Positions 15,538-40,600 of a DNA stretch of 64,000 nucleotides are shown piece by piece. The notes below the pieces were generated by a model. The model saw only the letters and a list, made by a program, of their open reading frames with translations. It ran no database searches and was not told the origin of the DNA. Both the position numbers and the translations under genes were made by a program. Location of the stretch: NCBI GenBank assembly GCA_964019425.1, contig OZ025783.1:1364001-1428000 (forward strand), read 5' to 3'. The stretch is from Flectonema sp. DT1601. Taxonomy: Eukaryota. Each line of letters starts with the position of its first letter. Position 1 is the first letter of the stretch.

Positions 15538-18500
15538 ATGACGAAAGGAGACAGCAGCTCTCGGAGCAGCAGCAGCTCTGATAAGGAAAAAGATTTGAAG
15601 AGACCTGAAACTGAAGAGGTTCGTTATTATCCTTTTGGAAATAATGGATTCGTTACCTACGATGAGTTCTTGGAACTTCCAAGAGGTTTGGACATTACTG
15701 AAGAAGACGCACAGAGTGAAGATGGTCTCGATGGTGAACGTCTTCGTGTCTTCAGAACCTTTCAGACCAAACAGGAACACGACAAGGCCAACAGATGGAA
15801 TTTACAAGAGATGCCTAACACGGAAGTCCCTTACAAACTTCTATCGACGATGGGAAAAGTTGAGTGGGTGATTTCAGCTTTCGTTAAGTTCTGCGCGATC
15901 TGGGGAGTTCTGTACTTGTTTATCATTGCTTTGGGAATTATGGGTAACGCCTTTAAGGTTCTTGGTGGTAAGTCTTCTGGTAAGACTTTCCGTGAGAGTG
16001 AGCTGCTCTCCAATCCGCTGGCCGGTCTTGCGATTGGTATCCTTGCGACAGTTCTCATGCAGTCATCCTCGACCACGACTTCGATTGTTATTTCAATGGC
16101 TGCTTCCGACTTGGTGTCGGTGAAGAACGCGGCGTACCTGGTGATGGGAGCGAACATCGGTACCTCAGTGACCAACACAATCGTTTCGATTGCTCACTTG
16201 AACAGTCCGGAACAGTACCGCAGAGCATTCACTGCTGCTGTGTTCCACGACATGTTTAACTGGTTGACTGTATCGATGTTCCTTCCTCTCGAAGCGTCTT
16301 CTGGATTCCTCGTAGAGCTCGCTGGGGCAGCTGTCGACAGCATGAACCTCGGAGATAAACAACAGAAGACTGAATTCATTAAAAAGATTACAAAGCCTGC
16401 TTCTGGACGTGTCGTCTCTGTTGACAAGGGACTGATTGAGAAGATTGCTGAAGCAAAGACTAGCGAAGAATTATCAAAACTCGAGAAGAAGTCGATCATC
16501 AAAAAGAAGTCTGGATTCGTTTTCCGTGACACTCCACAGTCAGATGACGAGGCCGGTTTGTTGTTGTTGTTCGTGTCGATTACTATGCTTTGCACTTGTC
16601 TGTTGCTTCTCGTTAAGCTGCTCCAGTCTGTCCTAAAGGGAAAGGTCGCTGTGTACACGAGAAAGGTACTGAACCTCGACTTCCAGAACAAGTACCTGAA
16701 GATGTTTGGTGGGTTGGACAGTTACATCCTTCTCCTTGTCGGAACTGGTGTCACCATTTTAGTGCAGTCGAGTTCAGTATTCACCTCCACATTGACTCCA
16801 CTTGTAGGTATTGGATTGATTCACATTGAAAAGGTTGTTGCATTGACTCACGGAGCTAATATCGGAACCACTGTGACTGGTGTCATCTCAGCACTCTCAG
16901 GAGACAATGTCGATACCGGAATGAGAGTCGCTCTTGAGCACGTTTTCTTCAACTGTCTCGGAACAGTAGTCTGGTTTGTCATCTGGCCGCTCAGACCCGT
17001 TCCTCTCGCCGCAGCGAAGTTCCTCGGAGAGACTGCCTCTAACTTGAAGTGGTTCCCTGTCGCGTACATCATTGCTGGTTTCGTAGTTGTTCCGACTTTG
17101 ATCGTTGGTCTTTCGATCCCTGGATGGGAGGTACTAGTGGCTGTTGGTATTCCAATCTTTCTGATTATCTTGTTATTCGTTTCATGGTTATGGGTAAGAA
17201 GAAACAGGGCCAACATGTTATCACGTGGAGGATGCCTGAGATCTGATGTCGCCCCTTGTGGATGTGCATACCCAAACTGGATGCAGGTTTGGGGAGGAGA
17301 CCGTAGTGAGGACACTGTCGACATGGACGAGCTTAGAAAGAAGGAAGCTTTAGCAGAGGCGGACGAAGTTGCTGAATGGCCAACATCTCCGATGGCGTGG
17401 GGTATGGCGCTCTTGGCATTCCTCGCATTAATGATGGCGATCCCTACTGCTCAGTGGAGACGTATCCGTTACGCAAAGGAGACCCGCGGAAGAAAGGAAT
17501 ACGGTTTCGGACTGTGGGAGGTCTGCTCTGATGACTTCAAAGAGGACGTCGAATGGGCAACCAGACCTCCACTGTGCGACCAGGCACAGGTGAACGAATG
17601 CGCAAAGGATTTAGCTCGTAGTTGTAAGACTAACGACTGGGCAGCAGAATTCGAGCCAACTAGTTTGGAGGAAGACATGTACGAGAGTGCCTGGCAGACC
17701 TGCTCGAAGCTCGGGTGTCGTGTGTGGGACTGGCTGCAGCATTGCCCTGAGATGCCAGATTGCAGTGCCAACAAGGAATTCCACACAAACCGTTGTGCCT
17801 CTGTAGTGTATAATTACAAGTTCTTCAACCATAACCAGATGGACTCAAAGGGTGTTGAGTACTCGTACCCAGGTGACACTTCAACAGTTCCACCTCCGAT
17901 GGCGAGTACCCCAACACACGCTAACGTTTTCTTCTCAGGAGTTGCCAGCAGTTACAAGGTATCCACTTTCCCAGTTGCACCTAAGTCTCTTGATGACCTT
18001 AACGCGGCTAACGCCCCAAATGGTCTGACAGCTTCGTGCACTGGCTGTACTGAGACCTGTGCTTCGTCTACCGATCGCAGCATCTGCACTGACGCTCCAG
18101 GATTCACTGGTCTTTCTTATGATAGTTGTTCAGGAGAGTTACTTGTCGTGACTGGACGTGGTCCAACTCTGGGATGCACTGATGGAAGTGCCTTCGTCTT
18201 TGAAGGGTTTGCACCGTCGATGTCGAAAATCTCTCTGACGAAGGCGAAGGATGCCTCATCCCACGTTGCTGAGATTAGCACCACAGTTCAGTTGAAGCGC
18301 ACTAACAACCTCGGCGCTGTTACCTACGCCAGTGGTCTTCCAAATGCTAACAGCTGGGGAACTGCTTACAATGCACCGTCAGTCACCAGCGCTACCACAT
18401 GCTCGGGATCAATCTCAGCAGTTGATACTGAAGGTCTTGATCTTAGTGATGTTCACGTTATTAGATACAAAAGGAACTCTACTGCTGGTATCTACGTTGG

Positions 18501-19978
18501 TTCTGACCAGTACGGAGCAAGGGTTGTTTTCTGGGACGACAACGGTGAAATTCTCGCTACCTACGTTGCTGTCGGAACGGATGTTGCCAACACGATTGCT
18601 GTCCTTCCTTCACAGTTTGGATCCCGAGACAGGTCAAGTGGAAGAGTAACGATGACTATTAACTCTGACAAAACAAAGTTGGTTGTGTGCGCACAAGTTG
18701 CGATGAGCACTACGGCGTATCTCCGTAACAGTCCTGTCGTCAGATGTGCTGTCTTAGACATCAGTGACTACAGAACTCCGACATTGTTAAGCGTGAAGCT
18801 CGTTCTCCAGAACGAGGCCGCTGTAGAGTACGGAGCAGACGTAAGAGGTGTCGCCTCTCTCCAGTCTGAAGTAGAGTTCGTCTCCGCCCAGTGGCTTACT
18901 GGTGACAAGGTTCTCTTCTTGGAGCAGGGCAGGGTATGATTTTATTATTTTATTTCAAGAAATCCATTCATGACTTTATAAACTAAAACAGTTTAACGGT
19001 AAGAATCTTGGAGGAGGTATGTACGTTGTCGACTTCTCTACTGGAGATGATATCAAGTCATTGACTACCGACACTCTGGTGAACATCGAAGGAGCTGCAG
19101 TAAGAGCCAGGGCTTCTGTAACCAACCCATCAACTGCTGATGAATTCGACTACGAAGCCCATCCACAGGCCTATCAGATATTAGTCAACGCTAATGCCAG
19201 ACCTGTTGATGTAGAAAAGCTGATGGACCTGAACGACATCGATGAGAGCACCAGAGAGAAGATGTCATCGTCACCAATCGGAGGGATGCTCGTCCCAAAT
19301 GAGCACAATATCGTTCTCGCTGAAGACAATAAGTTTGGAGCCACCGGCAGCAGCTACTCCAAAGTGCACGTTGTCAACCTGAAAAACAAGTTGAAGATGT
19401 CGCAGCCAAAGTGCTCTCCATCATCATCATCATCATCATCATCAACACCAACTAGTGACTCGAATATTGTAAAGGGAACTGAGAGATGTCGTGACATCGA
19501 AGATGTCTGCCCGGAGGGTGACCTCGCTGGAGACTTTAGAGCTGTTGCTGGATGTGTTGTTACTTCATGTATTCTTCTATTTATTGGTCTCGTCTTTTTG
19601 ATTGCCTACACTTGCACTTCAAAGGCTGCGTTTGGTATCTACGTCACTGCCGGTTGTTTCACTGTGTGTTGGATTCTGCTTCTTGCTGGTTGGGTCAGGG
19701 TTGCTGCTTTAGAAGACAGCACCTACACCTGTATGTTCCAAGATGAGGCTTTGAGAGGTGGGCTTGTTCTGATTAAGGGAAAGCTTGTGTACATAACTAT
19801 GGAGAGTTACTCGTGGGCGTTTGCAATCTTCTCGTGGGGATTGATGACAATCTCGTTAGCCACTGTCCTGCACCACGTTATCAGTAAAGCATGCTGCCCT
19901 GATCCTTTAGCTGAGAAGAAGAAGGAGTTGGCAGAGGAGGGAGGTAACGACAGTGAGAATGCTCCTGACCAAAAATAA
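15538..19978 (+). CDS. SLC34: SLC34 (NaPi-II) sodium-phosphate cotransporter fused to an amastin/claudin-like module with an inserted phytase-like domain; intron 18934-18991; about 1460 aa
   Basis: Two QSSS repeats (MQSSSTTTS, VQSSSVFTS), two GANIGT motifs and HDMFNWL. A 58-nt GTATGA...AAAACAG intron joins the ORFs in frame (EQGR|FNGKNLGGGMYVVD). Confidence 0.9.
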
Positions 19979-20644: not shown

Positions 20645-22123
20645 ATGGCGCCACTCGCTGAAAACGGTGATATCACATCCCCAGAGAACTGGGCTGCGTA
20701 CTTGGCTGCTTCCGTAGCATCTGATGGAATGACAGGAATAGTACCAGCTGTTCAACAGCCACAAGAGGATGCTTCACAAACTGTATCTGTGTCATCTGGA
20801 TCTTCAGCGATGGACAAGTACGAAAATGATGCATTGAGAGAGGAAAACAGAAAACTTGCGGAGGAGCTTCGTCAGCTGAGATCCCAAGTGAGTCGTTCTC
20901 CAGTAAACTCAAACAGTCAGCCAACAACACCAACTACTCCAACTTTAGTAGCGACTGCTACTTCAGAATCACAGGAATCAATTCGAACAACTGAAGTCAC
21001 TCCAATCGCTCCATTTGAAGTACCTGCAGTTGTACCTGTCCCACAAGTATTACCGTCACCTTGGGTTTTCGGAAATGAAACAATGGCCAAACCTGATGCC
21101 ATTGCTGATGCAGTTTGGAACGCCTTCATCACCAACTGCACAATCCGCTGTCTAAGACCTAGTCAGATACCATTTCTTGATAATCAATCATTATTATCAC
21201 TTGGTATTAATAGTCTTGAGGGTTGTATCGCTCTTAGAGAATCTCAGGTTATGCAACAGATGCAGATGCCATCACTCGCTGAACAGCAACTTCAGCAACA
21301 GTTGATGGCTCCTCTTGTAGCTGCAGCAGAGCCTGTGTTCTTCGCTGGAGAATTATCTCAGGTTGTTTTACTTGAAGATCCTGGTAAGGGAGAATGGGTG
21401 AATGTTCTCATCACAGCTGTTGATAACATAACGAGGACTTGTGATATCCTTGTTCTTCCTACTCCTGGTGCTGGATCTAGATTCGCAAGACAAAACAGAA
21501 AAGGGATTAGTATGAAATATTTAAGGAAGTTGTTTATTCCTCAACAGATGCCTCAATCAACAATGATACAGCCAACATTAGTAGCCCCAACTGCTACAGC
21601 AACAGGGTTACTACCACCAGTCGTACCTGTTGCATCTGGTGTCCCTATCTCCAGGAAGGTGATGCTGAGATTTCGCTACGGACGTGTAGGAACCTGTGAG
21701 TGCTCTCTCGGGCTGGCAATCGGAACCCACGTCATAGTAGCCATGGGAAGAGAAGGTCGTCACCAAGATCTTGGAGTAATTATTAAATTTATGGGTTCTG
21801 GAGGTGACGGACGTCGCGTCGTTCGCGCTGCTACCCCAACTGAAATTGCCAGCTGGAACAACCTCTCAGCTTCTGATGCTGAGGCTAAGGATTACATGAC
21901 TGACTTAGTGGAGAAAAATGATGTCCCGATTGTTATCGATGCCGCTGAATGGCAATTTGAAATGAAGACTTTAACATTTCACTACACTAGTTTGGTCCCA
22001 CACCCAGACTTCAGAAAGGTGTTGACTACCGCCTACCGTAAGTTCCACTGCAGGATTTGGATGAACAACTGCAAGCCTTCTGAAGGCAAACCAGGTGAGC
22101 TTCTGAACGTTTCTGTAGAGTAG
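20645..22123 (+). CDS. PSP1 C-terminal domain protein (probable RNA regulator)
   Basis: C-terminal HVIV...DLG...VVRAAT...DAAEWQFEMKTLTFHY...DFRKVL...FHCRIWM matches the PSP1 domain. The N-terminus is a coiled coil plus low-complexity sequence. Confidence 0.85.
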   Translation: MAPLAENGDITSPENWAAYLAASVASDGMTGIVPAVQQPQEDASQTVSVSSGSSAMDKYENDALREENRKLAEELRQLRSQVSRSPVNSNSQPTTPTTPTLVATATSESQESIRTTEVTPIAPFEVPAVVPVPQVLPSPWVFGNETMAKPDAIADAVWNAFITNCTIRCLRPSQIPFLDNQSLLSLGINSLEGCIALRESQVMQQMQMPSLAEQQLQQQLMAPLVAAAEPVFFAGELSQVVLLEDPGKGEWVNVLITAVDNITRTCDILVLPTPGAGSRFARQNRKGISMKYLRKLFIPQQMPQSTMIQPTLVAPTATATGLLPPVVPVASGVPISRKVMLRFRYGRVGTCECSLGLAIGTHVIVAMGREGRHQDLGVIIKFMGSGGDGRRVVRAATPTEIASWNNLSASDAEAKDYMTDLVEKNDVPIVIDAAEWQFEMKTLTFHYTSLVPHPDFRKVLTTAYRKFHCRIWMNNCKPSEGKPGELLNVSVE

Positions 22124-25100
22124 AAGTATATTGCCGAGTTAAATCTTGTTGTGCACACAGGTCTATGTCATCCCCTCTTGACTCAGACCTGAAGCAAAGC
22201 CATGAAACTTGTTATTTCTTACCCAGATAAGGAGAATTCTTTGATCTTCGAACTAAAGGGTAAAAAAAAAATAATTTCGCAATTTACCAATCTCACTGTT
22301 CGGTATTCCATGGTTGCAATCATTAGGAAAAAAAAAAAAATAAACGACTATAAAAAAAAAAAAAATTACTTACTTCTTTATGCCGTACCTGTACCCATTG
22401 CTATTCGAATAAACGATGAAAAGGAAAAAAAAATAAGAAAAAAAATAAGAATCGAAGAAGAATATATATTATGCCGAAGGAACTGTTTTAAAAAAAAAAA
22501 AAAAAAAAACTGGAAGCCGAAGAAAAAAAGAAAAAAAAGAAAAAAAAAAAAAAAAAAGAATTTTTATAGTTTGTGTCCTTGATTATTTTCCCTTCCTCAC
22601 CTTATTTTCTTTTTCTTTTCGACAACAATCCTGTATATTTATACTGACATTATTTTTGTTATGTACAAGTGCTATACAATATCTGGCATTTTCTTCATTT
22701 TTGGCTACTATTCCAAAACGAAGCTGAACCAATTCTTATGCTTTTTTAGTTTAACCTTGTTAAGGATAACTATTTCTACATTGTCAAATTATCACTCCCC
22801 TTTTTTTCGTCTACAAACTCAAACATTCAACCCCTTATTTTTTCTTTTTTTTTAGTTTTCGAATTTTTTTTTTTCACTCCTCGTTCTCTGTTTTTTTTTT
22901 TTTTTTTTGTTGTTGTTTTTTTTCTGTTTTCGTAAAGGAAAAAAAAAAAAAAAAAAAATATCTTCCGTTGCGGTGGTAATTCCACGCTTGCACGGCTTAA
23001 CATCCTCTCTTTTCTAAATTTTCATCCGGTTTCTCATTACCGGCCCCCCTTTATGTAGCTGTTTATCATTATTTTCTAAATCTGAAAAAAAAAAACAAAA
23101 AAAAAAAAAATACCAGATTAGAAAATTTAAGGGTTCGAAACTTCACAACAGGATTTCTTGTTGGAAGTTGAACACAAAAATATTTCATTGCAGATTATTA
23201 GTTTCCTGCAGATAAATATAAGAATAAGATAAAAGTGAGAGAGTTTACCATTCAGGAGATTGTTAGCTCAGATGATAAAACGTAATTCAGATAAAAAGAG
23301 GATTTCTTTTTAATTCCTCGACTTCCAATACCCTATCTCAATCCCTGCTTTTTTTTATTTTAATTTTCCCCCCTTATTCTTTTTTTTTCTTCTTTCCTTG
23401 TTTTTTTATTTTTGGAAACAAGAAGAAAAAAAAAAAGGGAAAGAAAAAAAAAACCAAAGAAAAAAGGAGAAAATTTAAAAAAAAAAAAAAGAAACGAAAA
23501 AGAGGGAACATAATTATTATTTTTTTTTTTTTTTTTTAGTATATAATATCCTTCGCAGTCCTGTAGCCTGCAGAACAAACAAAAAAGTACCAATATGTGT
23601 TTTTCCGACACGAAAAAAAAAAAAAAAAAAAAGCAAAAAAAAAAAAAAAAAGAACTCTTCGTGTACCCTAAGGGAATAAAAGCATTATTATTAATCCTGG
23701 CATCAGCCAGCTCTTTTCTCTTTAACGAGAAATCCTGATATGTTTTGCATTTCTTTCCGCTTCTTAATAAATCTCCAATTTAAAAAAAACATATTATTAT
23801 TATTGTTGAGATCACATAGGGAACCCTTTTGTACGATGTAAATCAGTCTTCTGAGTGCTAGTAAGAGACTTGCTGTAATACTACACGCGTCTCTCCATCT
23901 GTTTCGTCACAGTCTGTGGATCTAGTCACCCGTTTTGTTTGTTGCTCTTTTTTCTCTTATCTTCTAAAAAAAAAAAAAAAAAAAAAATAAGGCAAATTGT
24001 CTTCCGGTGTCCTCTGCACTTAACGTTATTCTTTCTTTTTTTGTTTTCATTCTTTTCTTGCTACGGTTCCAGATTCCGTGATGAGCCTTGTTAAACAAGT
24101 ATCTATTGGAAAATGGTAACTAGCTTTTATTCTTTTTGTTGTGCACATAAAATTGCGCAAACGAGTCCCGTGCAGAAATTCTGCTGAGGTGATCAACGCG
24201 GTTTGACGTGATACTTTGTGATAGTAGTATGCTTAGTCTTGCTCAATCGCTTGTATCTTTTGGGTCAACTTTTCTTTTTTTCTTTTTACTGGCAAACGTT
24301 TTTTTTGGTATGTAGTTGTGTGTTGTGCCAAAACTGCTTATTTAACGAGCGCCCTTCAGTAGCCGAGTAACCTGATTTCGCGCAGATAAAAAAAACATGA
24401 AAAATCCATTCGGAAAATTCCGCTTGCCAGTGCAAGCAAACTATGTGTTCGTGGTCGCAGTTTTGCTTTTTTTTTTCCTCTTTTTTTTTCCCGTTTGTTT
24501 CCTTCTCCCGAGTCCCTGATAAATATAAAAAAAATATTAGTTTCAAGGTACTTGGTCACATTGTGACACTCAAAAGTATGGGCATTCCGTGTAGAAACTC
24601 TGCACTGGTTATCCATACCTGCTTGTGAACCGCCGAGAGAATCTATCCTCAAAAATGATAGATGACCCTTTTGTGAAATTCCAGCAGTTTTGCCATCTAT
24701 CTTGTGTTTGTGAGTGTTTTCTTTTTTGCCAAACTTTTTATCTGTGTTGGGGGGTATTAAAAAGTTGTTCTGGGCACATGTGACATTACTGTCATCTTTC
24801 CCATGTGGGGGAGTTAGCTAGTGTTGTCGATTGATGGGTACTGTCTTAACTGAAATCCTGCTGTCCTTGAAACGTCTGAAACGAGGGATCTCTCAAGTTT
24901 CAAGTCCTTTTGTTATATTTTATTTGTTTTCGCTCTCTCCGTGGCTTTTTTTTTAAAAAAAAAATTTTTTTTTTTTGGAAAAAAAAAAAAAAAAAAAAAA
25001 AAAGAGGGAAGAAAAAAAAAACGGAAATGAACGTCCAACGTGCTTTCTTTCTTCGGTTCAGAGCCAGTGATTCTGATACCGCATTCAAGGATGGTAACGT

Positions 25101-25753
25101 GCCTTCCTTGAGACTGACTACGGCTTTAATTGCCATTGATCTTAACGAGCCGGCGCTGTGCGTGCGATTTCTTTCCTTCTCATTTTTAGTTACTAAAAAT
25201 AAACTTATAATTACAAGAAAAATTTGGTGCTTCTTGCCCTAATTTTCTTTTGATTTTTTAATTAATGTTTATTGACGATTGTACTTCGAAAAGAAGGAAT
25301 CGAAAAAATCTTCTCCCCTCTTGGTTTGCTTTTTTTTTTTGAATATACTCAAACATTCAACCCCCCGCATGATAGATCTTTTTGTATCTTATTAAATCCC
25401 CCCCGTTGTTCTGCATAGCCTAAACACTAGAAATCTAATCTAGCGGCGAGCATCTTGCGAACAGATGTTTATCTTTTTTTTTGGAATTATCCAAACAAAT
25501 AGGAATATTCGAGGAAGAGTTCAGCCTTCTCCCCGCAAGAAAAAAAAAAAAAAAAAAAAAAACCTTCCCTCCCAATGAGATTCCTTAAATAATATCCTTT
25601 CGTTTTTTTTTTTTTTTTTTTTTTAAATTTCTTTATAAGTTTCCTCCTCCTTACAGAGGAATATCTTCGCTATGCCGTCTTACAGGAAGCAAGTTATAAT
25701 TTTGGTGACAAAAACAGCAGTAATAAATTATTTTGTTCTTCTTGAAACGGTAC

Positions 25754-26127
25754 GTGAACGGCAGGACCCTTCAGTCCAGCGTCATGTTGAATTCTTAGAA
25801 GCCTATCAGTCGACTCCAGTGTGGCGCTTTTGTTTTTATTAGTCACTGATGTACCATTTTTTTTTTTTTTTTTTACAAGGCAGTTTTTTTTGAACTGCAG
25901 GACCCCACAGTCTAGCGTTCTAAGCAGCTTGCAAATATGTAGCAACCCGCATGTTTTTTTTTTTCTCCTTTTCTCCTTTTTTTTTTTCTTCCTCGTATCT
26001 AGACTGTGCTTAGTTGACCCGATGCGGGGTGTTACGGTTCAGTTGATGTTTGCGACCTCTGTTGTAGCCTTCTAACATTCCTTAGTGGTTCCATGATAGG
26101 TCAGGTGCAGGACCCTCAGTCTAGCAC
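25754..26127 (+). repeat. Three copies of a conserved hairpin GC-A-GGAC-(CCYWCA/CCTCA)-GTCY-A-GC
   Basis: Copies at 25754-25785, 25892-25920 and 26105-26127, each with a different but complementary lower stem. Confidence 0.7.
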
Positions 26128-26240
26128 GCAAATAAAAATTGCCGTAGCTCCCGCCGTGGTATCAATTCAGTCGGATTTTAGCCACGCTGAATGCGTTTGG
26201 AAAAAAGAGTTTAAAAAAAAAAAAAGGGGAGGGGGGGGGG

Positions 26241-26271
<31 letters not shown>

Positions 26272-29200
26272 ACATCAACATCGTAGGATGATTGCTTCGT
26301 GTCTTTTCCCCTGTTTTCTACATTGTCAAATTACCCCCCGTCATTACTGATCTAGCATCTTTCTAAGCTTCTCGGTTTAACCCCTATGAGTATATTCCTG
26401 TTTCTATAGTCAATTCGTCACCCCGCATTGCTGATTAATTCATTTCATAACATTGCTCCGTGTATCTAGATCATTTATTGCAAATTTTTTTGTATCCCGA
26501 AGTTGAAAGCTGTAGAAGTTATTTTCCTTGTTCTTATGGTGATTTTGTACCAAACAGTGCAAAATACTAAGGCAAGTTGGAGAAAAAAGTGAACGTAGAA
26601 ACGTCAAACTTCCGTTATTTATAACAGATCAAAAAACAGTTTTCTTTTGTAGCTATTGGCAATAGTAGTAGCCCGCAGCAGAATTTCTTCTTCTCTGTCT
26701 TTTTTCTCCCTTTTCGGATACATGTCCGCGTTTAGTAGGTATTATAAGAACAAAAAGAAATGTTGGCAGCACTCGTAAACCTCTTTTAGCTTTATCAGTT
26801 TAAGTCGGTTCACGGATTTGTGCACAAACAAAAACATCCAGTGTTATATTACTGTTTTTCTGTATACTTTACAAGTCAATTCTATCTTTTTTTTTTCCAG
26901 AAAAGCGTAGCGTGCTAGCCATAATACATAGATTTTGGTTTCCCATTTATTCTCTCTCTCTCTCTTGTTTTTTTTCTACTCACGTTTCTTTTCTTTCCTC
27001 GGCTTTCACACAAGTATCCAATTTGAGTTACCTAGTTACGCATTGTTCGTGGTTGGTAGATCCTTTTCCTGTCGCTGATTAGGTCTGCGTCTGCATTCAT
27101 TATGACTATAACAGAATTTAAAAAAAAAAAAAAAAAAAAGACGATTGTTTATTGCCTTCCCTTTTGCTCTTTCCTTCCAACATCCATCACCTTTTTTTGA
27201 CCATGTTAATTTTCCCGTAGTTATGGTCTTGTTGCTCTCGTCTAGTTTAATGCCGTAGAGTAGCTGCGGTATTCTTGTTCGCTCGAAAACAGTCTTTTTA
27301 AAAAGATTTCCTGTATTTCTTTTGTTTATTTATTTTTCCTTTTTTTCCAGAGACGAAACCCCCTCGTGGCGCTGCCTTGTTGTATCAGTCACAGGCAGCG
27401 TCCTCTTTTCTTATTTTGTTTTCCCCTCGAAAGCTATATATTTAAACGTTTTGCTGTTGTAGAAGGGGCCAACTACGCTCGTTCCTTTCATGTGTTTTGT
27501 TAATCTTTTTTTTCATTTTATTTCTTCGGCTTCCAACAGTTTTATTGCAACTTATTCTTCTACGGTGAGTTAGTTTCCTTTTGGTGTCTGTCTACTTACA
27601 GTACCAGTGGAAAAATCAGCTTTTGTTCGCTTAGCAGTCTTTGGCAAATCCATGCTGCTTACTGTGACTCAAAAAAAAAAAAAAAAATAGAAAGAAAGAA
27701 AGAAAGAAAGAAAAAAGAAAGAAAAAAGAGAAAAAAAAAGGTGAAATAAAAAATAAATAAAAAAAATCTTCGGCTTCCAATAATTCAAATTTTATCCTTA
27801 CCGGCGGCTTACTGCTCAAAAGTAGTGACAACATGATTTCTTCGATTCAGTATCATATTTAATCGACAATTTTCGGTTTTTAGTTTTGGGGTACTGGTTT
27901 GGCGACTTATGGCTCTGGTGATGAAGGTTAAACCTTCATTTCAACGTATTCTTTTTTGTGCAGTAGTGCTAGTTAGTTGATTGGTTATATCTTGAGGTTA
28001 GCTTCTACTTACATCCAACTTACCGGAATTCTTTTTTAAAAAAAAAAAAAAGTAAAAAATAAATAAAAAAGATGACATCGTGTGCAGTGATGATATACGA
28101 TAGTCTTTGCTCCCCCCAACGTTCATTTAGCTATGGCGTTTTCTTTTTCTTTTCTTTTCTTTTATTTTTATTTTATTATACGTAATTCAAGGGTTCACGC
28201 TTTGAACCAGTCACTTGTGGTAGGTAGCCTTGTGGTCAAGGCTCATACTAATCCAGTTATGGAGGTCACTTGTCGAAGTAGCCCTTGCATCTCCCTTTTC
28301 TGCCTCTCTCCTTGTTTCCATTTTTTTATTCCAGTACACCGCTAGCTGTCGTTGTGCCGATCCCGTTCCCTCCCTTCGTTATTTCGTTCACGTACGAATA
28401 TACTATGTTGTATTTTCCCCGCGTTTCTTTTCTTTTTTTTTTTCAAGCAGGGATTTATTTTCCTGTCCTTGTAGTTCTTTTGCCTCACAGCGAAAGATGC
28501 CAGCTAGTATTATGTCACAATTTATCTTTTTATCTTTTTTTTTTTTTTTTCCCCCGTTAACAGCCTCTAGCTGTCACCGCTGAAGGTTGGCAACAGGCTG
28601 GTGTCCTTCTCGTGCAGTCACGCTGCTTAAGACTATCATATTAATAACATTCATTCTTCTTCTTCGCATGTTGAAGTTTGGGTGTGACGTGTTCGTTGGG
28701 ATGTCTTGTCCTGAACTGCATTTTTTTTTAATCCAACTAAATACTTATTAACGCTTAAGACCTGGAAAGTATTTCCCAGTTACTTGTGATAAGGTGTGTT
28801 TTCATCCGTCCCCCTTTTTTTTATTCTCTTTTTTTTTTTTTTTTTTTTTTTTTGTTCTCTGGATCACGTTCCTTTACCTGGCCTGCTTTGCAAAGCATCG
28901 GAGATTTATGCTCTGGTGACACCCTGATGACAAAGTCTCTTCCATACAGGAAATTGCTGCATCCTTCCTGCTGGTTCTAATTATTATTATTTCTTTTTTT
29001 TTCTTCTCCCTCTCTATCTCTCTCTGCAAGCAAACCTTCCTGAATCCCTTCCCGTCCCAGTCAACGTAGCAAGATATAAAGTAGAAAATAATTTAGAATA
29101 AAAAAAAAAGAAACGTTTAAAAACTTATTTGCATGTCCCGCTGTTTCGTGTGCGGATTTTCCCTCCCTTTTGGCTAACTATTTTTGCATTAAAAAAAAAA

Positions 29201-29749
29201 AAAAGATATTATTATTTTAATCGAATATGGTACGATTAGAAAAAGGTATTAACTCGAAGACGAAAACGAAGCACTCTTTTTTTTTTGCTTTATGGTGTTG
29301 GTCCTTCCCACTCCCTAAAACTCTTTTCCTACCTGTTCTGACGTAAGCCAAAGATCAGGAGCAGGCATTTTCTGTGGTGAAGAAATTCAAAAAAAAAAAA
29401 AAAAAAAAAAAGGCGGTAGGAAAAAAGTAATTGTTATTGTTAGGTGCGTACTTTGGTTGCCAAGTTAGTGAGGTTATTTTGTTGCCCCGTATCTTTCCTT
29501 GCTTAGCAGAATCACCGATGGTGATATCACATTATCCTGCTGTACGCGGAAACAAGAAAAAAAAAAGAGGGAAAAAAAGCCATTTGGCTTTGTTTTATTT
29601 TTTTATTCTATTTCTTTTTTTTTTTTTTTTCCCCTTTCCTCTCTCTGTTTTATTTATTTATTATTATTTTTTTTTGTACCCCCCATGCTATATTACACGT
29701 AAAAAAACTGCAAACAAAAAGGCAGAAAAAAAACGACTTAAATGTTTCA

Positions 29750-30270
29750 CTTCAGCGCCCAGCTTAAGACTTGATATTCGGTCCTGGTTCTTTATCACTT
29801 TTAGATTAAGGGCTTGCTAACCTGAAGATTTTGGCAACTCCACCTTACCTACATAACGGGAAATCAGCACCTGGGATGCGCGTGTTAGTGGCCTGTATTT
29901 TAGTGCAGGAAACGATTATACACTTCAAAAACAGATTATCTAATGATCTCAGACAGCTGAATCAAAAGATGCCTGTGAAGTTTCGGAAACCCACTTTGCA
30001 CTGCTTCTCGTGTTTTGATGAAGGAGAGCTGCTTCAGCGCCCAGTTGCGATTTTGGTTCGAATAGAGCCAGTCGTGGCTAACCTGAAGTACTTTAGGCTT
30101 AAACATCTTGGTGGAAAATTGCCTCAGATGTGTATTTGTTTTGGTTTTATATTATCGGCATAAAAAAAAAGAAGTGTTCCACGAAAAAAAAAAAAAAAGA
30201 AATTCTCAGCGCCCAGCTGCTATTGTGGTTTGTTGTCGTCGAACCTGCAGTCAGCTAACCTGAAGTTTCT
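29750..30270 (+). repeat. Three copies of a structured element TCAGCGCCCAG-[variable stem-loop]-GCTAACCTGAAG
   Basis: Copies at 29750-29827, 30032-30088 and about 30198-30270. The flanks are conserved and the interiors are unrelated but self-complementary. Confidence 0.75.
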
Positions 30271-33200
30271 CAAAGAAAAAAGAAAAAAAGTAAAAATATA
30301 AAAAACAAAAAACAAAAAAAACAAAAACGATTTGATCATCAATTCACTGAGATATAATTTCTGGTGTGCATTACCAACATTTCGCTGGTCCCTAAATTGT
30401 GTTGACCTGTAGCTTCGCGTTGATGTGCAATTCAAGAAGCTCTATCAAAAAAGAGCCTGCATCGATATCTTAAGGCAATAGATATTTCCATGTTTGCCAC
30501 GAGGCTGTGATCTGTTTTTCTATTTTTATACCAACTCTCCATCCCCCTCGCAGTCTTCTAAGGCGTCGCGGTGAAAATTAAGTGTTTAACCTGTTAGTTG
30601 TTACCACTTATTTTCGGTTCCCTTTTTTTTGTCCGAGACCTTTTTTTTTTTTTTAATGTGACGTGTTTTCAAGTAACATGCCTAGCTTTCTTTATTTTAT
30701 TTTATTTTTTTTCGTTGTTATCTTTGGAATTGGTTTGAAAAGCTTACTTGCACTAAAAATACAAGCAGCATATATTGCCCTTGAGATAAATTCTGATAAA
30801 CGCTGCAATGACAGCTTGAGTTCAATTCTGCTACTAGCATGCTGTTAAAAAAAAAAAAAAGATGAATAAAAAAAAATTAAATAAATAAGTAATAAAAAAA
30901 TAGAAAACAGCAGTACAAGGCACTTGCTATGAAAGGGGAAAGAAAACAAAAGAAAAATAAATAAATAAAAACACCGTTTTATATGGTAACGCTCTAAAAG
31001 CGGAACTTCCTTTCGCTAAGGTAGCACCGCACACAGAATTCTATATATCAGTTTTTTTCCTAATCCCCGTGCAAAGGTGGAGGATAACAAGTGAATAAAA
31101 GCCGCCGTTTCTTCAAGGGAACCGATGCGAAGACTGCTAATTCTTTGTTTTGTTCTGTTTGTGTCTTTTGCACATGAGTTTATTATTTTTGTTTAATTTT
31201 TTTTTTTTTTTTTTTTGAATTTTTTAAAATTTTTTTTCTTGTTATCACTGAGTACCAATTTGACAAGCGGACTGCGTGATGTTATTTTCTTGTACTCTTT
31301 ATTTTTCGTTAAATGGTTTTTTTTTTTTTTAAAACGGGGTGTAAGAGATGACTAAACTAATTATTGGGGCATGGTACGTGGCGATGATTACGCGCCGCTT
31401 CAAATATCAACATGCAAAAAAAAAAAAAAAAAAAAAAAAAAAATGAGAACATTTCTAGTTATTAAATAATACGCTTTGACGAGGCAACCCGAGACACCTG
31501 TTTCTTCTGATTAAGTCAGTCACAGTGGCATGTCATGGAATTTCGCTTCGGTCGGTGTACTTATTACTTGCACGTTTTCGTGCTTTTTTCCCCTTTTTTT
31601 CCCCCAAAAACCCTTATTGCTCTGTAATGAGCATTTTTATTTTATTTTGTGTCAAAACATAACCTCACTCGCAAATACGGGAAAATAAGCACCGATTATT
31701 TATTATTATTATTTTTATTATTTTTTTTTAAAATCCCCCTCTTCCCCCTTTTCTGCGATGAATAAAATAAGCAGCCATAAGATAGTAGTAACATCGGTCT
31801 TTGTTATACAGATAAAATACGATTTATCTTATCATAGTATTATTGCTTACTCCACGGGGGACAAAACCAAAAAAAAAAAAAACGTTCTTTTTCTACCCCA
31901 ACGTAGGGGGGTGAGTGTACCGCTTAGTAGCTTGCAGTATTGTTTTTTATACCTCCCTTGGTTGGTACAATAAATTTAGAAGTAGGGGAAGATATATATA
32001 CGAATGGAGATTTGTTTGTGTAAAAAAGCTATTAGATAAGACTAGCTTTTGCACCAGCGTGACGTATACTGCAACCAATCAACATAAAAAAAGAAATAAA
32101 AATATAAAGTTCAACTTACTGAGGTGCATCCTGTGGCGAGAAGGGGGAAAAAAAAAAAAAAAAACGACAAAACATTATATAAAATCAATGTCTAAGATAT
32201 ATTCGTGGGCAGATTTTTTTATAGCGTTGGATTCCAAACGACATCGTAAAAATAAAAATTTAAAAATATGTTGTGCTTACCTTTAACGAGTATTTTGTGT
32301 GACACCCGCGTTGCGACGGCACAACGTGCGAGTGTTTGTTTCCCCTCATTTATTTTCCCTTTTTCTTAAGCTCTCTTCGCAGTGGGTATGCCACAAGTTT
32401 TTAAAAAGGTGGCTTTAAAAAAGAAAAAAAAAAAAAGACTAATTGAGTGCATAGTCCTACTGGGGACGTCGTAGCCGATTAGTTCTCTTTGCATTTTCTA
32501 TTATTTATAGAAAGCAGCTTGCGATTTTATTGGGAGATGGATATCCGGTTTGCTCTTATAGCTTCTTTTTTTTTTAAAATTCTTTTTTTTTTTTTTCTCT
32601 TTCCTTCTTCACACGGTGTAATTCTTACCTTCCCCATTCTCTCTCCTTAGCAGATATAGTACATGTTTTTTTTTTTTTTTTTTTTCATTTCCTTATTTGT
32701 GCATATATTACTACCAAGTAAGCCCACTGCCTGCTTTGTGCATGTAGTGGGTCTGGGTAGTTACCTCTGGTCAATTTACGTCTCTTCTCGCCTGTGAGAA
32801 TCTCACGGTGAAGTGATGGTAACCCGTGAGCTTCTCCAGAAGTTTGACTTCCCTGACTTAGATAAATAAATAAATTAATAGGCTTGCATCTACACTCTAT
32901 AATTGATGCCAGGGGGTCATGCAAATGAAATTAATTTGGAATGATGCTGTTTTAGGCATCGCTGGTTTATATTCACTATGCAGTAATCTGTATTTTTACA
33001 AAAAAAACTGTTATTTTTTCTACATTTCCGGTGACCAGTTGCGCTCGGAAAACTTTGTCCTCTTTCTTTTCTTTTTTTTCTGTGAGATTTTAGTTTCGGG
33101 CACCAACAAGTAAGTAGGGCACGTTGCATACCTCACCCATAAAATTAAATTATTATCCAATCTGAAGCTAACAATTTAATTTTGATGTTGTTTTAGTTGT

Positions 33201-34642
33201 CTTGACTGACCCCACTGAATTGTAACAAACGCGGCTTTTAAGACAACTATTTCTACAGCAGCGGGGAGGGAATTGACAGACAGATTAAAAACAGTTCCCT
33301 TTTTTTTTTTTTTTTTTTGCTGATTAAGTTAAAGAATTATTTCCATTTCGTATTTTAGTAGTACAGTAGAGAAAGGACGTTGCTTGTTTCGAACCACCCT
33401 TCGATATTGCAGGGGAGGGAACGACAAGTTCTGCCTTGCGCTCATTTTTTTATTTCTTTTCTTTTCTTTTCTTTTTTCTTTTTAAAATAAAAATTCAAAT
33501 TTTGCTCTCTCATCTGTTTTGTCATTTTCTTGCTATGTTTAATGCTCTCAACCTTTTCTTGTGGTTGCAAGTTCCACACAGCTGGGAGCTTTTGCCTAGG
33601 ACTAACTTGTCTACATGCGGCTCCGAGTTGAACGCACGACCAAGTCTTTTCAGATTGTATTGATTGATCACTCTTAAGTTACTTTTTGTTATCAAAATCT
33701 GTTTTATTTATATATGTTTTTAGTTTATACAGAGTGGACAACTGGTGTCTATTCTTTTAACTACGGTTAATGTAATTCCTCACAGAGTTAACAGAGGTTT
33801 TTAGCTGCCCGTGAATCTCTCTCCCTTTATTTCTAGTTGCGATTTTCAGCCTTGTAGCTTCTGTGCTTGGCTTGCTTTTAATAAATACATTTCTTAATGG
33901 GGAGATGGTAGTTCTCGGCTCCTTTATCTGGGATGGAACGGCCTTATTGCGACGAGTAGCTTCATAGCAATAGCGGTTCCAGGTTTACAGTTTTCTTTTT
34001 CCACCTTCTTTTCCCATATTTCCCTCTTACAACAGCTGTAAGGGTAATATTAGCTCTCTTTAATTCAAAAAAAAAAAAAAAAAACATTACTTACGAGAGG
34101 TTCACCCAGAAAATATTGTGACTTATTGAAATTAGTTCTATTATTGTATCGGAAAGTTAGGTTCCACTGGTGATGTGTTTTTATCGCTTGGGACAGCTGT
34201 GTGATTAGAGCCACGTATAACGTAAAGGAATGGCCTTTGGAAAAACTGTGTGGTTTAAAAATGAAACAAATGAGTACTAGTTACTTAACTGTTATAATTC
34301 TCACAGCAAGATCCACAGGTCCGGGAGATGTATCTTCATGACTTCACGAAATACGAAAGGCTTCACAGAGTTTTTGTCTCATTTCAAGCTATCTCTTTTC
34401 GTCTTTTTTTTGACGTGCTTTGTGCGTTCCCTCTCTTTTTTTTTTAAAATAAATTTTATTTTTTATGTAATTCTTTTTTTTTTTTTTTTTAATGTTTAGG
34501 TATACTTTACATTAATCAGCCCAAAGTAGCTCGTGGTACAGTGATACAGACGCAATTAGTATTCAGAATCGATAAATTCGGGGGACGTACTGCAGAGCTT
34601 GTGGGTGTTATTATGAGTATTTCCTTGTATCTTTCACTATAA

Positions 34643-34676
<34 letters not shown>

Positions 34677-36678
34677 AAAATAAACGTACGTGCACATTTT
34701 TCCTCAAGGTACTTTCTTGATGGAAAGTTTTGCTAGAAAAAAAAAGAGAAAAAAAAAAAAACTCCCTGTTATTCTCTCTCCATATCTGCATCCCCAAAGT
34801 TGTTATTTATTTTATTTTACTCACCGTTATGGGAAAAAAAAAAAAAAAAAAAAAAAAAAAAACACGAAGCCCTAGTCACCGTCGAAATAAGGAAAAAGGG
34901 AAAAAAATGGGGGCATTACTGCATTGTTCTAAAACGAAAAAAAAAGATACCCGTAGATAATAGGCGTATGCCCTGTATCGTCAATTTTGACCTCTCATTC
35001 TTCCGAGATATATTGAAGTGTTCGGTATCGGAATTGGCCCAATTTGGTAAAAACAGGGACATCATTGCTGACAGATTTCTTTGTTCATCTCTCTCTCTAT
35101 TTCTCTCTCCCTGCTTTCTTTACAAATCGCAAGCGACGTATTAATGAAGTAGCGTGACATAAGTGAATTGAACATCGTGATGACTCATTCGACGTTCTCT
35201 AACATGTAATTACTCCCCGTCTTTCTCTTCAGGAGTATACCAGCATACCATTCACTCAGAGCGCTTGTGGCTGATAAGCGTCACACTTGTTGCGGAAATC
35301 AACGTAACACTTTATTCTCCCCCCCAAGTCCCCCCTTTTTTTTTCCCCCATCAACTATTTCCGTTTTTCTCACATTTATTGTCGTCGTTAGCTGTCGTTT
35401 AAACATGTTACTGTGGTAACATGGTTTAAGCGTTCACAGTAGCATTTGGTTGGTGTCGTCAATGTCGAATTCATGCATTTAGAGTTTACAATTTCCTTCA
35501 ATACTTTGTTGGGGGAAAAAAAAAAAAAAAAAAAAAAAGAACACAGGGAACAAAAACCACAATTAATATAACCGGAATTTTTAGTATTTTCTGTTCATCA
35601 ACGTTCAAAATGGATTTTGTGTCAATTTTTTTAAATTTTTTTTTTAAATTTTTTTATAAAAACCTACAGCACACAGCCGTTTTTGTTTGTCTTTTTTGGC
35701 ATCGGACGTAGTAAGGACTGCATTTGGGTATTGTTGATCAAGCAATAGCTGCGTAGTCCTCCAGTAGTCTGGCCTCTATTTTGACACATGGCAACAAGCT
35801 ATTTCTAATTTATTACTAATGCGTAGTGTCTGTTCACAACACTCCTAGTCTGAAACAGTCTGCGTGGTGGACGCACAACGGACTTGAGTGTGCAAAAAAT
35901 CTGAATTAAACGATACTCGTTTAAACCGTTCAATGTCAAATATGCGCAAAAAAAAAAAAAAAAAATAGAATAAAGAATAAAAACGCATGATTCGCAGTAC
36001 GAATACTTTACTTTTTTTTATACGACCCTGATGACTTTTGGAATAGTACTATTTTTTCTTCTTCTTCCCCATACTATTTTTTCCCCCTCTCTCTCCTCTT
36101 GTTGGTCTCGTTGATCACTTTATGATTGAAATATGTGCCATGATCCCCCATCCCTCTCTCCCCTTTTGATAAAATCATTCTTCTGTGGAAGTAGATTGTC
36201 ATGTGTTTAAAAAAAAAAAAAAGAAAAAGGGAAAAAGAAAAGAAAATATACATATGCATACGTACGATTAGTGAACGAAGGACTGCGTGCCCAACAGAGC
36301 CTTTTTTTACGATTATAGTATGTTCTTGTCAATGGGTGGAGCCGTGATTCTTCGTTTTGGAACGAATTTTTTTGAGGTTGTCTGAACTGAAAATTACTGA
36401 AGCAACAAAAAAAAAAAAAAAAAAAGAATGGTACTATTTTCACAGTTATAAAGATTTACGATAATATCCTTGTTGGTTCTCTGTAACATTCGATTGATTC
36501 TTTATCGCAGCACATGATTTCTAGAAAAATAAAATAAAAACGATAAAAGAGTTGTGTTGCTGTTAATGGGTTCCAAGTCTTGGTAAGAGACTACCAACAA
36601 GCATTTGTATAGATTACTGACGGTACGGTTGCAACAGTCGTCCATAAGATTCAGTTTTCTTGAAAATATAAGCATTTC

Positions 36679-36714
<36 letters not shown>

Positions 36715-37620
36715 CCCCCATGTTCGCTCCCACACCCCTTCAATCGCTCTCTTTTAACGTATGCAGTAATTTTTCTCATCTTTCGTTGGGTAGCACTACC
36801 TTATGTAAACCTTCAAGTAAATGAAAAGAATCCACTCAAAGCAAAGGAATGGAAAATGATAGTAACTCTGTATGCAGCGAAACAGAAAGGGGGATCCTAT
36901 CCTCAGTTTAGTCAACGAGAGAAGAGAACAAAAGAATTACTAAAAAGTTATTTCTCTAGAATGCCATGCTCTCTCGAAGGCTGCTCATCCTGTCTTGCAA
37001 AAAAAAAAAAGGAAAAAAAAAAGAAGAACTCCATTTCACTTGGTTACTTATTTAACAATCGCTGGTTGAACTGCTGGATTCAGTTCTGTGGGTGATTCGG
37101 TTTCTATGTTTTTAATCATTCTTTTCTCACAGTAGTCCTAAGAAAGCGCACCTCATCGCATAAAAAGGACTTCACATATTTTTTTTTCCCTCTCTCTCTC
37201 CCCTCATTCCCTCCCTGCTCATTTCTAGCTTATTGAAAACAAAAAAATGAAATGAAGGTAAAAAGAAAACAATAAAAAAAAAAAAGAAAAAAAGAAAAAA
37301 GAGCACAAACAAACAAAAAAAAGAGAACGAAAGAAAACAAACCGAAACCCTTCCGCAATCATGTTATAGTGAAAGCGATAGCCGCTGGTTGCTTCCTTTG
37401 GCTTACGAGCATCTGATTCCCAATGCAGCTATTCCTTTTTTTTTCTTTTTCTTTCATTTTTTTTCATTCACTTCTTTCCTTTTTATGAAGTGAATTTAGT
37501 TTTTTTTTTGCACAAAATTGGGAAAAGAAGAACCAATTGTTCAATCCAGATTCTTTCCTATATATAAAAATTACAATTTAACTACAGAAATCATCAAAGC
37601 ACACAATATGGTTACACAAC

Positions 37621-40600
37621 ATGTGGAAACATAAAACACCCAATGGAGTTCTCAAATATATGGATGGCGTGTCATTCTCAATAATTCCTTCACTGTACGG
37701 TAATGTGTTGCAAATATCTACAGCTGTTGAAAAGTACCGAAATAATAATAATTATTGTGAATCTGAGAGAAATTGGAATGAAGAGTGGCAACAACTAATT
37801 CATAAACAAAGAAATGAAGAAAGTGAGACATCGATGAAACAACTTTGTAAAGAGTTCGAAACAAGATGTGAAAAGAGATGTGAACTAGTTGGAGATTCAA
37901 TCAGCGGATCATCAGGGGCTTGCCTGCCTCTAGTTCCAGGTATTTACTTCAGTGCTGGAATCGTCACTGTACCCATCTGCACTCCGGAAAGAATATCTCT
38001 TTTTGGAACCTTAAATGCAACTCATAAGCTAGTCAGCAAGGAGCTTACTGCACTGAGCGAAATACTTGGGATCCTACCACACTTAACCTCTCACATATCC
38101 TTACCCCTCGCTTGCAGTGTAATTTATCGAGGTATGACCTTTTGGTGTTATGCATTATTCCCTGTTGCGGGATTGGTTAAGAACCGTGTGAAAAGTGAGA
38201 TGGGAAATTACGATAAATATAAAGTTCGATTCCCGAAGGACACTATTTTATTCAATCTAAACGAAAAAGGATTAGAAGTATATTGCAACCCAAATGAATA
38301 TACGACACTTAGAGAAATTGGATCTCATTTCGGATTATGTGAAATTGAAGCATTGCAGTTTGCGGCATTGCCTTATATTCAATTTCCTCTGAGTCTTAAC
38401 ATGTTATGGGTGCTTAACGATAATCGAACTTATATTTATGATGTTGGGAGGTTTCTTACTGCTATGTGCAGGGATTACAAGGAAGTTGACAGACATAGAT
38501 CGCTAAACTTGCAAACTTACAGACCTGACATGATCAGGGACATCACAAATCACAGTTGGGTACCAGAACTTGTCGGACCGTACTCTGTCGAATACTGGGG
38601 AGTCGTTAACTTATCAAGTCAGCTTCATAAGGTACTATTATTAAATCGGTTAAAGTCTTCTTATACATCAGTGGCGTCTCATGACCTACACAGCCACTTC
38701 TTATGCTTGAGTGATATTTACAATTTTCCTGTTTTGAGCCATAAATCAATGATGGACTTAACTGTTAGGGCATTTAAATGCTTATTAAATGTACCTTTTA
38801 ATCCGAACACTGGATCGAGACAAGTCTTACCAAGATGTGCTGCGACTGAAATGAGTCTGTTGGTTCGCAATGATCAAAATCAGTATTGGAATAATATGAT
38901 AGTTCCTATTTTAAAAGAAAAATATGGAATGTCATTTGAGAAACCGTCGTGTACATCAACGAGAATCGCTTCATCTCTTGAAAGGGATTTTATAAGTGAA
39001 TTTATAGGTGTCACGGAAAAAGATATAAATTTAGACTTACTGAGAGCTGTTGTGCAATCAATTAATATGACGTTTCATTTTAGTTATAGTTCTCGTCGTC
39101 GAGTTGTAGAAATTATTGAACATCCTTATGGTACGAAGGGAATTCGACTTCCTTTGTTTTCATCTTATAAAAAAACAATTTCAGATGTGTTATCTCAAAT
39201 TGATAAACGTGGAGTATCTTCACCTGGTTCAATTGTTTCATATTATCGACTAACAAAAATGTTGCGAGAACGAGGTCGAATCGGAGAATGTCCGTACTAT
39301 TCAGGCATCTGTTCTTCTATTCCAGTAGAACGTCTTGGTGATCGTCCTGACGCTTTAGTGTGTGAGTTCATTAGTTCACACGATCCGACTGCTTGCAAAA
39401 CATACTTAACAAAAACACATCTAAATACAAATTATGAAACAATAGTTATGAGAACCTTAGCACGAAGTACTCATATCAGCGACATCGAGAGATACGAATT
39501 GTACAGTCGTTTACTTTCTATATTTATGAAGACGAAAGATAGGACGTTATTATCGATTGTGAGAGAATTCGCTCTTGCTCAAATCGCTTTACTTGAAAAA
39601 ACCACATGCACTCGATGTGGTACCAACGCTGTAACGGTAGGTTGTTCTGTTTGCAAAGAAAAAGATGTAATTTCTTCTAAATCTGCTCATTTTAAAAGAA
39701 TTCAGTGTGATGTTAAAAAGATTATAAGTGCTTGCGGAGCCTTTCAAGTTGGAAGCGTTCCTATGATTCCTACGCCAAGCATCGGGAAAATGAATGAAAA
39801 GACTACCAAAGCTGGTGAGGGTGTGTACTATCCCTTATTCTCATATCAAAAAAAAAAAGAATTAGTTAGTGGTACCATAAAACTATCAACCAACAGCAAC
39901 AACAGATCAACCAGCATCTCGGAGGGGAACACTTAGAAGTAGTAGTTGTACTTCTCGTGTTGATCGAAAGCAATCCTCGAAATCCGCTTCACCACCTTCA
40001 TCACCCAAGAGAATTGGAGGTAATTCTGGAGTTCTTAGGAATCTTAATTTAGTACTCAAGGGACCCTCACCTCCAACAACTGTTTCTACATCAGGAATGA
40101 GTAGAACTCGTAAAGTCAAGGCAGCTGATCCACAGCAACCTACAGAACAAATAATTCCATGGCTGCCTGACGCGATTCCATTATGTGATAGTTGTGATAG
40201 TAAGTTACATGAAGGAATTGAGAACAAGTCTAGTTCAGTAATCCACCAACCAGATTCATTAACAACGAACATCATATCATTGTTAAAAGATTATGTATAT
40301 CTTGCAAAGACATCACATTTGAGTGGTGCTGATGATGTCGGTATTCTCACAGCGACATTACATTTGGGAAAACTAACTAACGATGCGTCATTAGTACAAT
40401 GTGCTTTGAAAGATTGCAATGAGCAAACTGAGGAATCATTTACTTGGAAAGTATTATTAGTGACGATGAAGTTTAATGGTTCGACGTTGGAAAAGGATTG
40501 TTTTTTTGAAATATTATCTGGTCTGGTGGAACAAGCCAGTATTTCCGATAGCCTTCCACAATGGATTTTTATAAAAATAGAAGAGCTGCTTAACCTTTTT

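Follow-up and report, generated by a model that had tools for sequence, protein, structure and literature searches.

Diplonemids rank among the most abundant eukaryotes of the sea, and their gene control is probably post-transcriptional. To our knowledge, even trypanosomes have few discrete structured cis-elements. For the NT8 mRNA of Trypanosoma brucei, a purine-responsive stem-loop of about 60 nt in the 3' untranslated region (UTR) is reported to act post-transcriptionally and to suffice for NT8 regulation (PMC4066783), and it is reported to be bound by PuREBP1-2 (PMC11405848). In trypanosomes, transcripts coding for RNA-binding proteins frequently carry very long 3' UTRs, which reach 7.3 kb in the case of RBP10 (PMC8982893), and redundant elements have been described in them (PMC8982893, PMC11405848). 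For MAT2A, six hairpins are reported to recruit METTL16, the U6 methyltransferase (PMC6162343). The 3' UTRs of Diplonema papillatum are described as exceptionally long ("several kbp") and have been proposed as protein-binding platforms; the genome paper calls for the identification of the factors that bind them (PMC10161547). In the literature accessible to this analysis, no diplonemid UTR element is described.

Here, we report three copies of a hairpin motif on the + strand of a 64-kb stretch of the genome of Flectonema sp. DT1601 (the window; all positions are counted from its first nucleotide). The copies lie in a long non-coding gap behind a gene for a PSP1-domain protein. We regard the RNA motif as real and apparently not described before; in kind it is familiar, namely, a structured multi-copy cis-element. 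The finding concerns one locus in one genome.

Several described systems resemble this locus in part. The METTL16-bound hairpins of the MAT2A 3' UTR occur several to a UTR and, like the copies, present an invariant sequence on a replaceable stem (PMC6162343), which makes them a model for how a protein could read several copies. However, the MAT2A nonamer UACAGAGAA is absent from the copies, which instead keep an inner loop and its pairs invariant. In addition, the host of the MAT2A hairpins encodes a SAM synthetase, whereas the presumed host of the copies is the PSP1-domain gene and protein binding is predicted. The NT8 stem-loop lies in a euglenozoan 3' UTR but is a single copy in a transporter mRNA, whereas three copies follow the PSP1-domain gene here; the two are likened by description. 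The RBP10 3' UTR of T. brucei is, like the gap, a very long non-coding tail that follows the gene of a regulator and contains several redundant elements; however, no short consensus was found in it, whereas two three-copy hairpin families occur here, in a gap twice as long (PMC8982893). Like the copies, trypanosomatid H/ACA-like AGA-box snoRNAs come in clusters and are built as a single hairpin (57-91 nt), in which a lower stem and a pocket are followed by an upper stem that is less conserved (PMC2613932). The copies differ from them in having no AGA box at 13-16 nt and only 2-3 nt on the 3' side of the loop. Finally, the P-site part of helix 44 of the small-subunit rRNA (Escherichia coli 1400-1404/1498-1501) has its CGCCC and UAAC strands in common with the copies, but its flanking pairs are unlike theirs and the probability of a chance match is not small.

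The three-copy core

The word TCAGCGCCCAG was found exactly at 29752, 30034 and 30206, always on the + strand of the 64-kb window, and GCTAACCTGA was found exactly at 29816, 30077 and 30254, once per copy. In all three copies, the identity of the 3' half-site reaches GCTAACCTGAAG, which starts 43-64 nt after the start of TCAGCGCCCAG, and the whole cluster lies within 520 nt. The repeated core therefore amounts to 11 + 12 nt, i.e., 23 nt that are identical in the three copies. Copy 1 occupies 29750..29827 (+) and has the invariant core, but its upper part is branched and unrelated; its motif fold is marginal. Copy 2 (30026..30093, +; core, 30032-30088) has an extended lower stem, the loop and a G-U-rich upper stem of 15 bp. 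Copy 3 (30199..30269, +; core, 30206-30265) has the same layout, with an upper stem of 16 bp that is homologous to that of copy 2.

Such a repetition is not expected by chance. None of 100 dinucleotide-shuffled versions of the gap contained a triple 11-mer within 600 nt, and none of 300 contained a triple 9-mer. Apart from the core words, no 10- or 11-mer of mixed composition occurs three times within 600 nt anywhere in the window. A structure descriptor that includes both stems matched exactly these three places in the 64 kb, all on the + strand. The first-pass annotation had proposed three copies sharing an inner loop, and the exact half-sites, the shuffles and the descriptor bear this out. 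A census of gapped triple motifs was non-discriminating (26 of 100 shuffles). A weaker fourth copy had also been suggested. At 24348..24375 (+), both half-sites do occur in order, which was seen in 6 of 300 shuffles; however, the motif is absent from the eight best folds of this site and the covariance model did not detect it. It is a possible decayed copy.

When the covariance model built from the three copies was run on the window outside 25901-25999, only the three training copies scored, and the next best hit reached 13.9 bits. For the region 28900-30800, one sequencing run yielded a single identical contig of 151 nt at 30427-30577, outside the copies. A pattern scan of metagenome contigs returned 21 loci; none had more than a single match and a single 3' half-site. 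The GC content was 0.47-0.75 in 19 of them and the two AT-rich loci do not fold into the motif, so these loci were put down to chance and rejected as homologues. The same scan of viral contigs returned 0 loci. In the accessible literature on diplonemid UTRs and snoRNAs, on Flectonema, on the half-site sequences and on autoregulation through tandem asymmetric loops, the motif is not described.

Folding and stem variation

Folding against shuffled sequences was clearly strand specific for two of the copies. On the + strand, copies 2 and 3 folded better than their controls (z of -3.76 and -3.25), whereas the corresponding values on the - strand were +0.14 and -0.95. Copy 1, in contrast, did not fold better than its controls on either strand (-0.28 on + and -0.40 on -). 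In a context of 700 nt, the probability of the core pairs was 0.91-1.0 in copies 2 and 3 and 0.01 in copy 1. When copy 1 was folded alone, its motif pairs had a probability of 0.55-0.66; the addition of 10 flanking nt lowered this to 0.06-0.07, and in wider contexts it dropped to about 0. The minimum free energy (MFE) structure of copy 1, at -15.1 kcal/mol, is a three-way junction, and this copy has two folds within 0.3 kcal/mol of each other. The marginal motif fold of copy 1 would need stabilisation by a ligand; otherwise, the copy would be decaying or switchable.

The stems that had been annotated for copies 2 and 3 were recovered as described. The stem annotated for copy 1 (TTAA..TGATA/TATCA..TTAA) was not: at -4.7 kcal/mol, it lies about 10 kcal/mol above the MFE. 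G-U pairs make up 4 of 24, 7 of 27 and 4 of 27 MFE pairs in copies 1, 2 and 3, respectively. The proposed selection at the RNA level on the + strand is supported by two features of copies 2 and 3: they fold well on that strand only, and the changes between them preserve pairs. For the invariant asymmetric loop CGCCC/AAC, the letters stand, but the fully open form is less likely. In copies 2 and 3, the G of the loop is predicted to pair with the C of AAC with a probability of 0.61-0.66, and the inner loop is thus probably made up of a bulged C, a G-C pair and CCC/AA rather than an open CGCCC/AAC.

The stems had also been described as freely varying. This does not apply to copies 2 and 3, whose upper stems are homologous (12 of 16 positions identical in the 5' arm, p = 0.0075), but the upper part of copy 1 is indeed unrelated to those of copies 2 and 3 (p = 0.45 and 0.67). 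Among the 20 consensus pairs of copies 2 and 3, five show one-sided changes, three show two-sided changes and none is broken. Across all three copies, 46 of 48 cells pair, compared with 19-56% in slid controls. Within the core, 7 of 11 pairs never vary and no two-sided change occurs. Covariation across the three copies was not significant, since the same values were reached in 124 of 500 shuffles. The invariance of the loop and its adjoining pairs suggests a read-out of sequence and not of shape alone, and an invariant loop with its pairs on drifting or replaced scaffolds is the pattern that a sequence- and shape-specific ligand would preserve.

The host locus and a proposed 3' UTR element

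In the window, 21 of 22 long reading frames are on the + strand, and the copies are co-oriented with all flanking genes. Upstream lies the gene of the PSP1-domain protein (20645..22123, +; 492 aa; PSP1 C-terminal domain, Pfam PF04468, E = 2.8e-14), which is presumed to supply the host mRNA. The protein is 80% identical to a protein of Flectonema neradi and 44% identical to one of Diplonema japonicum, which points to a diplonemid host of the Diplonemidae; relatives were found at 0 loci in viral contigs and 0 in prokaryote contigs. No solved structural relative was found, and the predicted structure is unusable (mean pLDDT, 38). Downstream of the copies, a gene with a CLU domain follows at 37621..39936 (+; PF13236, E = 3.5e-08).

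Between the two genes extends a non-coding gap of 15,498 nt (22124..37620, +), which lacks a convincing coding frame and shows a strand bias for GTAGC; the next largest gap in the window measures 2,710 nt. The copies start 7,627 nt past the PSP1 stop codon and end 7,356 nt before the CLU-domain gene. The 5' UTRs of D. papillatum are about 70 nt long (PMC10161547), so the copies, 7.4 kb off, are too distant to belong to the 5' UTR of the CLU gene. Of the six best stop-free stretches of at least 40 codons in the gap, five are on the - strand, at 40-56 codons. A tRNA scan of 26000-38000 returned none, and a promoter and terminator scan stayed at chance level, with a method that is unsuited to a eukaryote. 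Stable hairpin windows across the gap number 36 of 438 on the + strand and 27 of 438 on the - strand. Single strong hairpins on the + strand (z < -3, 70-nt windows) were seen at 35389, 28529, 28039, 33569, 32414, 23104, 32694 and 35704, and several of them carry inner loops. We infer that the gap is either a very long 3' UTR of the PSP1 mRNA or such a UTR plus a lncRNA.

A second three-copy hairpin family was detected by descriptor and shuffles at 25761-25780, 25897-25916 and 26107-26125 (+). It consists of GC, an A.A mismatch, a GGAC/GUCY stem and a C-rich loop of 5-6 nt ending in CA. The lower stems differ and all 18 core cells pair. A triple 9-mer of any sequence occurred in 0 of 300 shuffles, folding z values were merely -1.2 to -1.9, and the family has no Rfam match. 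GTAGC, chosen post hoc from a scan of all 5-mers, occurs in the gap 23 times on the + strand and 3 times on the - strand, spread over 23055-36790, compared with 7 and 5 times in the other non-coding DNA (15.7 kb). Dinucleotide shuffles gave a mean of 5.4 and a maximum of 14 against the 23 observed, whereas the excess over an order-3 model was not significant (z = 1.5). GTAGC is a candidate linear binding motif. CTCTC (49:6) and CCCG (28:9) are likewise strand biased in the gap. Two words occur there in exact pairs on the + strand: an 18-nt C/A-rich word ending in CATTCAACCCC at about 22817 and 25347, and the 14-nt word TCTTCGGCTTCCAA at 27523 and 27767.

Our preferred reading, to which we assign a probability of roughly 0.55, is that the copies form a repeated element to which a protein binds, within a very long 3' UTR that belongs to the PSP1 mRNA. 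The whole gap would then share one transcript with the PSP1 reading frame, and the copies, formed in the + strand transcript, would be repeated sites for a regulatory protein. The binding surface would be the invariant inner loop with its flanking pairs, while the upper stem would merely keep the two core strands in register. Three copies might give a dose effect or cooperative binding, and the element as a whole may tune the stability or translation of the PSP1 mRNA. In a eukaryote, a protein would be the most likely ligand. That this protein is the PSP1-domain protein itself, in an autoregulatory loop, is a guess. Kinetoplastid PSP1-domain proteins have been linked to mRNA control and are reported to be cell-cycle regulated, with evidence of mRNA binding for just 4 of the 11 in T. 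brucei (PMC6907760).

Several results count in favor of such a protein-binding element: the invariant loop and pairs, the pair-preserving changes in the stems and the presence of the copy 1 core on an unrelated scaffold. The 3' UTR setting is favored by a fold that is strand specific and co-oriented with the flanking genes, and by the second hairpin family and GTAGC in the same gap. Published work points the same way: diplonemid genes are described as co-transcribed, with long 3' UTRs proposed to bind regulators (PMC10161547), trypanosome regulators such as RBP10 have very long 3' UTRs (PMC8982893), and kinetoplastid PSP1-domain proteins have the link to mRNA control noted above. Other results count against this reading. 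The distance of 7,627 nt from the stop codon exceeds the "several kbp" given for D. papillatum 3' UTRs, and intergenic regions in that species can exceed 10 kb (PMC10161547), which speaks against the UTR itself. Copy 1 is not predicted to adopt the motif fold in context, stable windows are barely more common on the + strand, covariation is not significant, the GTAGC excess is not significant against the order-3 model and most of the 11 T. brucei PSP1-domain proteins lack evidence of mRNA binding. With loop mutants set against stem mutants, the 23-nt core offers built-in controls for a pull-down or a reporter assay.

Alternative explanations

Instead of a protein-binding element, the copies might be domains of a separate lncRNA or be processed into small snoRNA-like guide RNAs, which we consider unlikely. 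In several respects they look like the H/ACA-like RNAs of trypanosomatids (PMC2613932): they measure 57-78 nt, have the shape of a single hairpin, keep a conserved pocket below an upper stem that diverges, and are clustered. Copies 2 and 3 are predicted to share that architecture, in which stem I, pocket and stem II make up one hairpin of 57-91 nt; copy 1 is branched, and copy 3 has an AGA three bases past its extended stem. However, counted from the top of the loop, AGA stands at position 8 in copy 1, is missing from copy 2 and stands at position 18 in copy 3, and a distance of 13-16 nt is required (PMC2613932). With an AGA box at that distance in 0 of 3 copies, the copies do not fit an H/ACA-like snoRNA of the trypanosomatid type. 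They do not fit a box C/D snoRNA either: box D (CUGA) is present in all three copies, but an exact box C (RUGAUGA) is found in none, a box with one mismatch is found in copy 2 only and the gap contains just four RTGATGA on the + strand. Thus, of the protein-binding and guide roles that the first-pass annotation had offered together, protein binding fits best, and the lack of both boxes speaks against a guide. The core might also bind a metabolite or an ion, or cleave itself; the copies would then be a eukaryotic riboswitch or ribozyme arranged in tandem, in which copy 1 is the unit that switches. Small aptamers, too, have an invariant asymmetric loop set between pairs that do not vary, and the two nearly isoenergetic folds of copy 1 would suit a switch. 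Yet the conserved letters amount to just 23 nt with no second conserved domain, and the hammerhead pattern CUGANGA...GAAA occurs in 1 of 3 copies on the + strand and 0 of 3 on the - strand. In addition, Rfam 15 gave 0 matches at the gathering threshold in the whole window. At E values up to 5, none of 30 weak matches spanned a whole copy, all being of low complexity; the CrcZ match that touches copy 3 (17.7 bits against a threshold of 95) is an A-rich chance match. The earlier statement that the motif matches no riboswitch or ribozyme therefore holds for Rfam at both settings, and we regard this reading as very unlikely. Selenocysteine insertion (SECIS) and iron-responsive (IRE) elements were set aside: on the + strand, every copy lacks both the RTGA of the SECIS stem quartet (RUGA-GA) and the CAGTG of the IRE apical loop (CAGUG).

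The letters of the loop lead to another reading, which is quite unlikely in our view: the core could mimic the P-site half of the decoding centre (helix 44) and recruit a ribosome-biogenesis or initiation factor or an rRNA methyltransferase. The sole CGCCC of E. coli 16S rRNA is at 1400-1404, facing UAAC at 1498-1501, and the same nine letters are invariant in the three copies and in the possible fourth. Presumably, the eukaryotic decoding-site sequence is identical and forms a bulged C, a G-C pair and tandem C.A. In human rRNA, A1832, the METTL5 site, is reported to pair with C1703 at the decoding site (PMC6735865). However, the rRNA match was noticed post hoc, and a rough estimate puts the chance of finding two such strands opposite each other in rRNA at 0.05-0.07. 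If the strands need not face each other, 66% of all 5+4 combinations are found within 110 nt of rRNA, and matches of 5-9 nt arise readily for either hairpin family. The flanks differ from helix 44, the U of UAAC is paired in copies 1-3, and METTL5 is described as inactive on short RNAs and as writing only rRNA in human cells (PMC6735865). By analogy, tandem decoding-site mimics in an mRNA 3' UTR could couple a PSP1 regulator of the cell-cycle type to ribosome biogenesis or SAM supply; this is a long shot, but, if true, it would give euglenozoans their own equivalent of the MAT2A-METTL16 circuit, with rRNA mimicry as its basis. A neutral origin, in which the copies are what remains of a local duplication or of a short mobile element whose inverted ends are imperfect, would agree with the shared ancestry of copies 2 and 3, with the gene-adjacent repeats that are common in D. 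papillatum (PMC10161547) and with the non-significant covariation of three sequences. Neutral decay, however, would not have kept 23 core letters identical and yet turned the upper part of copy 1 into an unrelated sequence. Two of five flank and spacer comparisons reached p < 0.05, both between stretches with A runs, and there is neither a common target-site duplication nor a further copy in the 64-kb window, which makes relics very improbable. Finally, the copies could be non-canonical structured introns with Euglena-like CAG/CTG ends, or splice signals in which a hairpin holds a branch point and a 3' splice site. In all three copies, a 5' N3-CAG pairs with a CTG near the 3' end, as in the Euglena N3-CDG/CHG rule (PMC12501133), and removal of all three can yield an open stretch of 235 codons, which beats 22 of 22 slid controls (maximum, 176). 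However, that stretch scores as non-coding (-0.16 per codon, whereas real genes reach 0.12-0.35), and the purine needed after CTG-N5-6 (PMC12501133) is absent from all three copies at both spacings. Non-canonical introns are reported to dominate in hemistasiids only (PMC12621601), and the putative introns of the window, judged by eye, follow GT..CAG with A-rich ends, as do those of D. japonicum, whose 3' ends are A-rich (PMC12621601). The branch-point-like CTAAC noted in the 3' strand found no support, as CTAAC is not enriched on the + strand of the gap (8 on +, 11 on -) and the putative introns are A-rich at their 3' ends. Introns or splice signals are therefore extremely unlikely, and the protein-binding element in the PSP1 3' UTR remains the preferred reading.

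Elsewhere in the window, putative canonical introns with A-rich 3' ends were seen by eye at 5103-5220, 8600-8650, 10640-10730, 18935-18992 and 61525-61606. Some of the putative introns have no in-frame stops, and the listed open reading frames read through them. A long perfect array of the pentamer ACAAA occupies 42450-42650 and beyond (+), in a putative intron of the aminotransferase gene. The frame at 15538-19978 (+) combines a Na+/Pi cotransporter domain with a long C-terminal extension that apparently crosses an intron into the frame at 19019-19978. Two nearly identical genes of 416 aa stand in tandem at 51428-52678 and 53466-54716 (+), the first without a Pfam match. At 58900-59943 (+), an RNA ligase carries a PHA02142 OB-fold domain, a combination that is, judged by the Pfam names, typical of phage-like or bacterial ligases.
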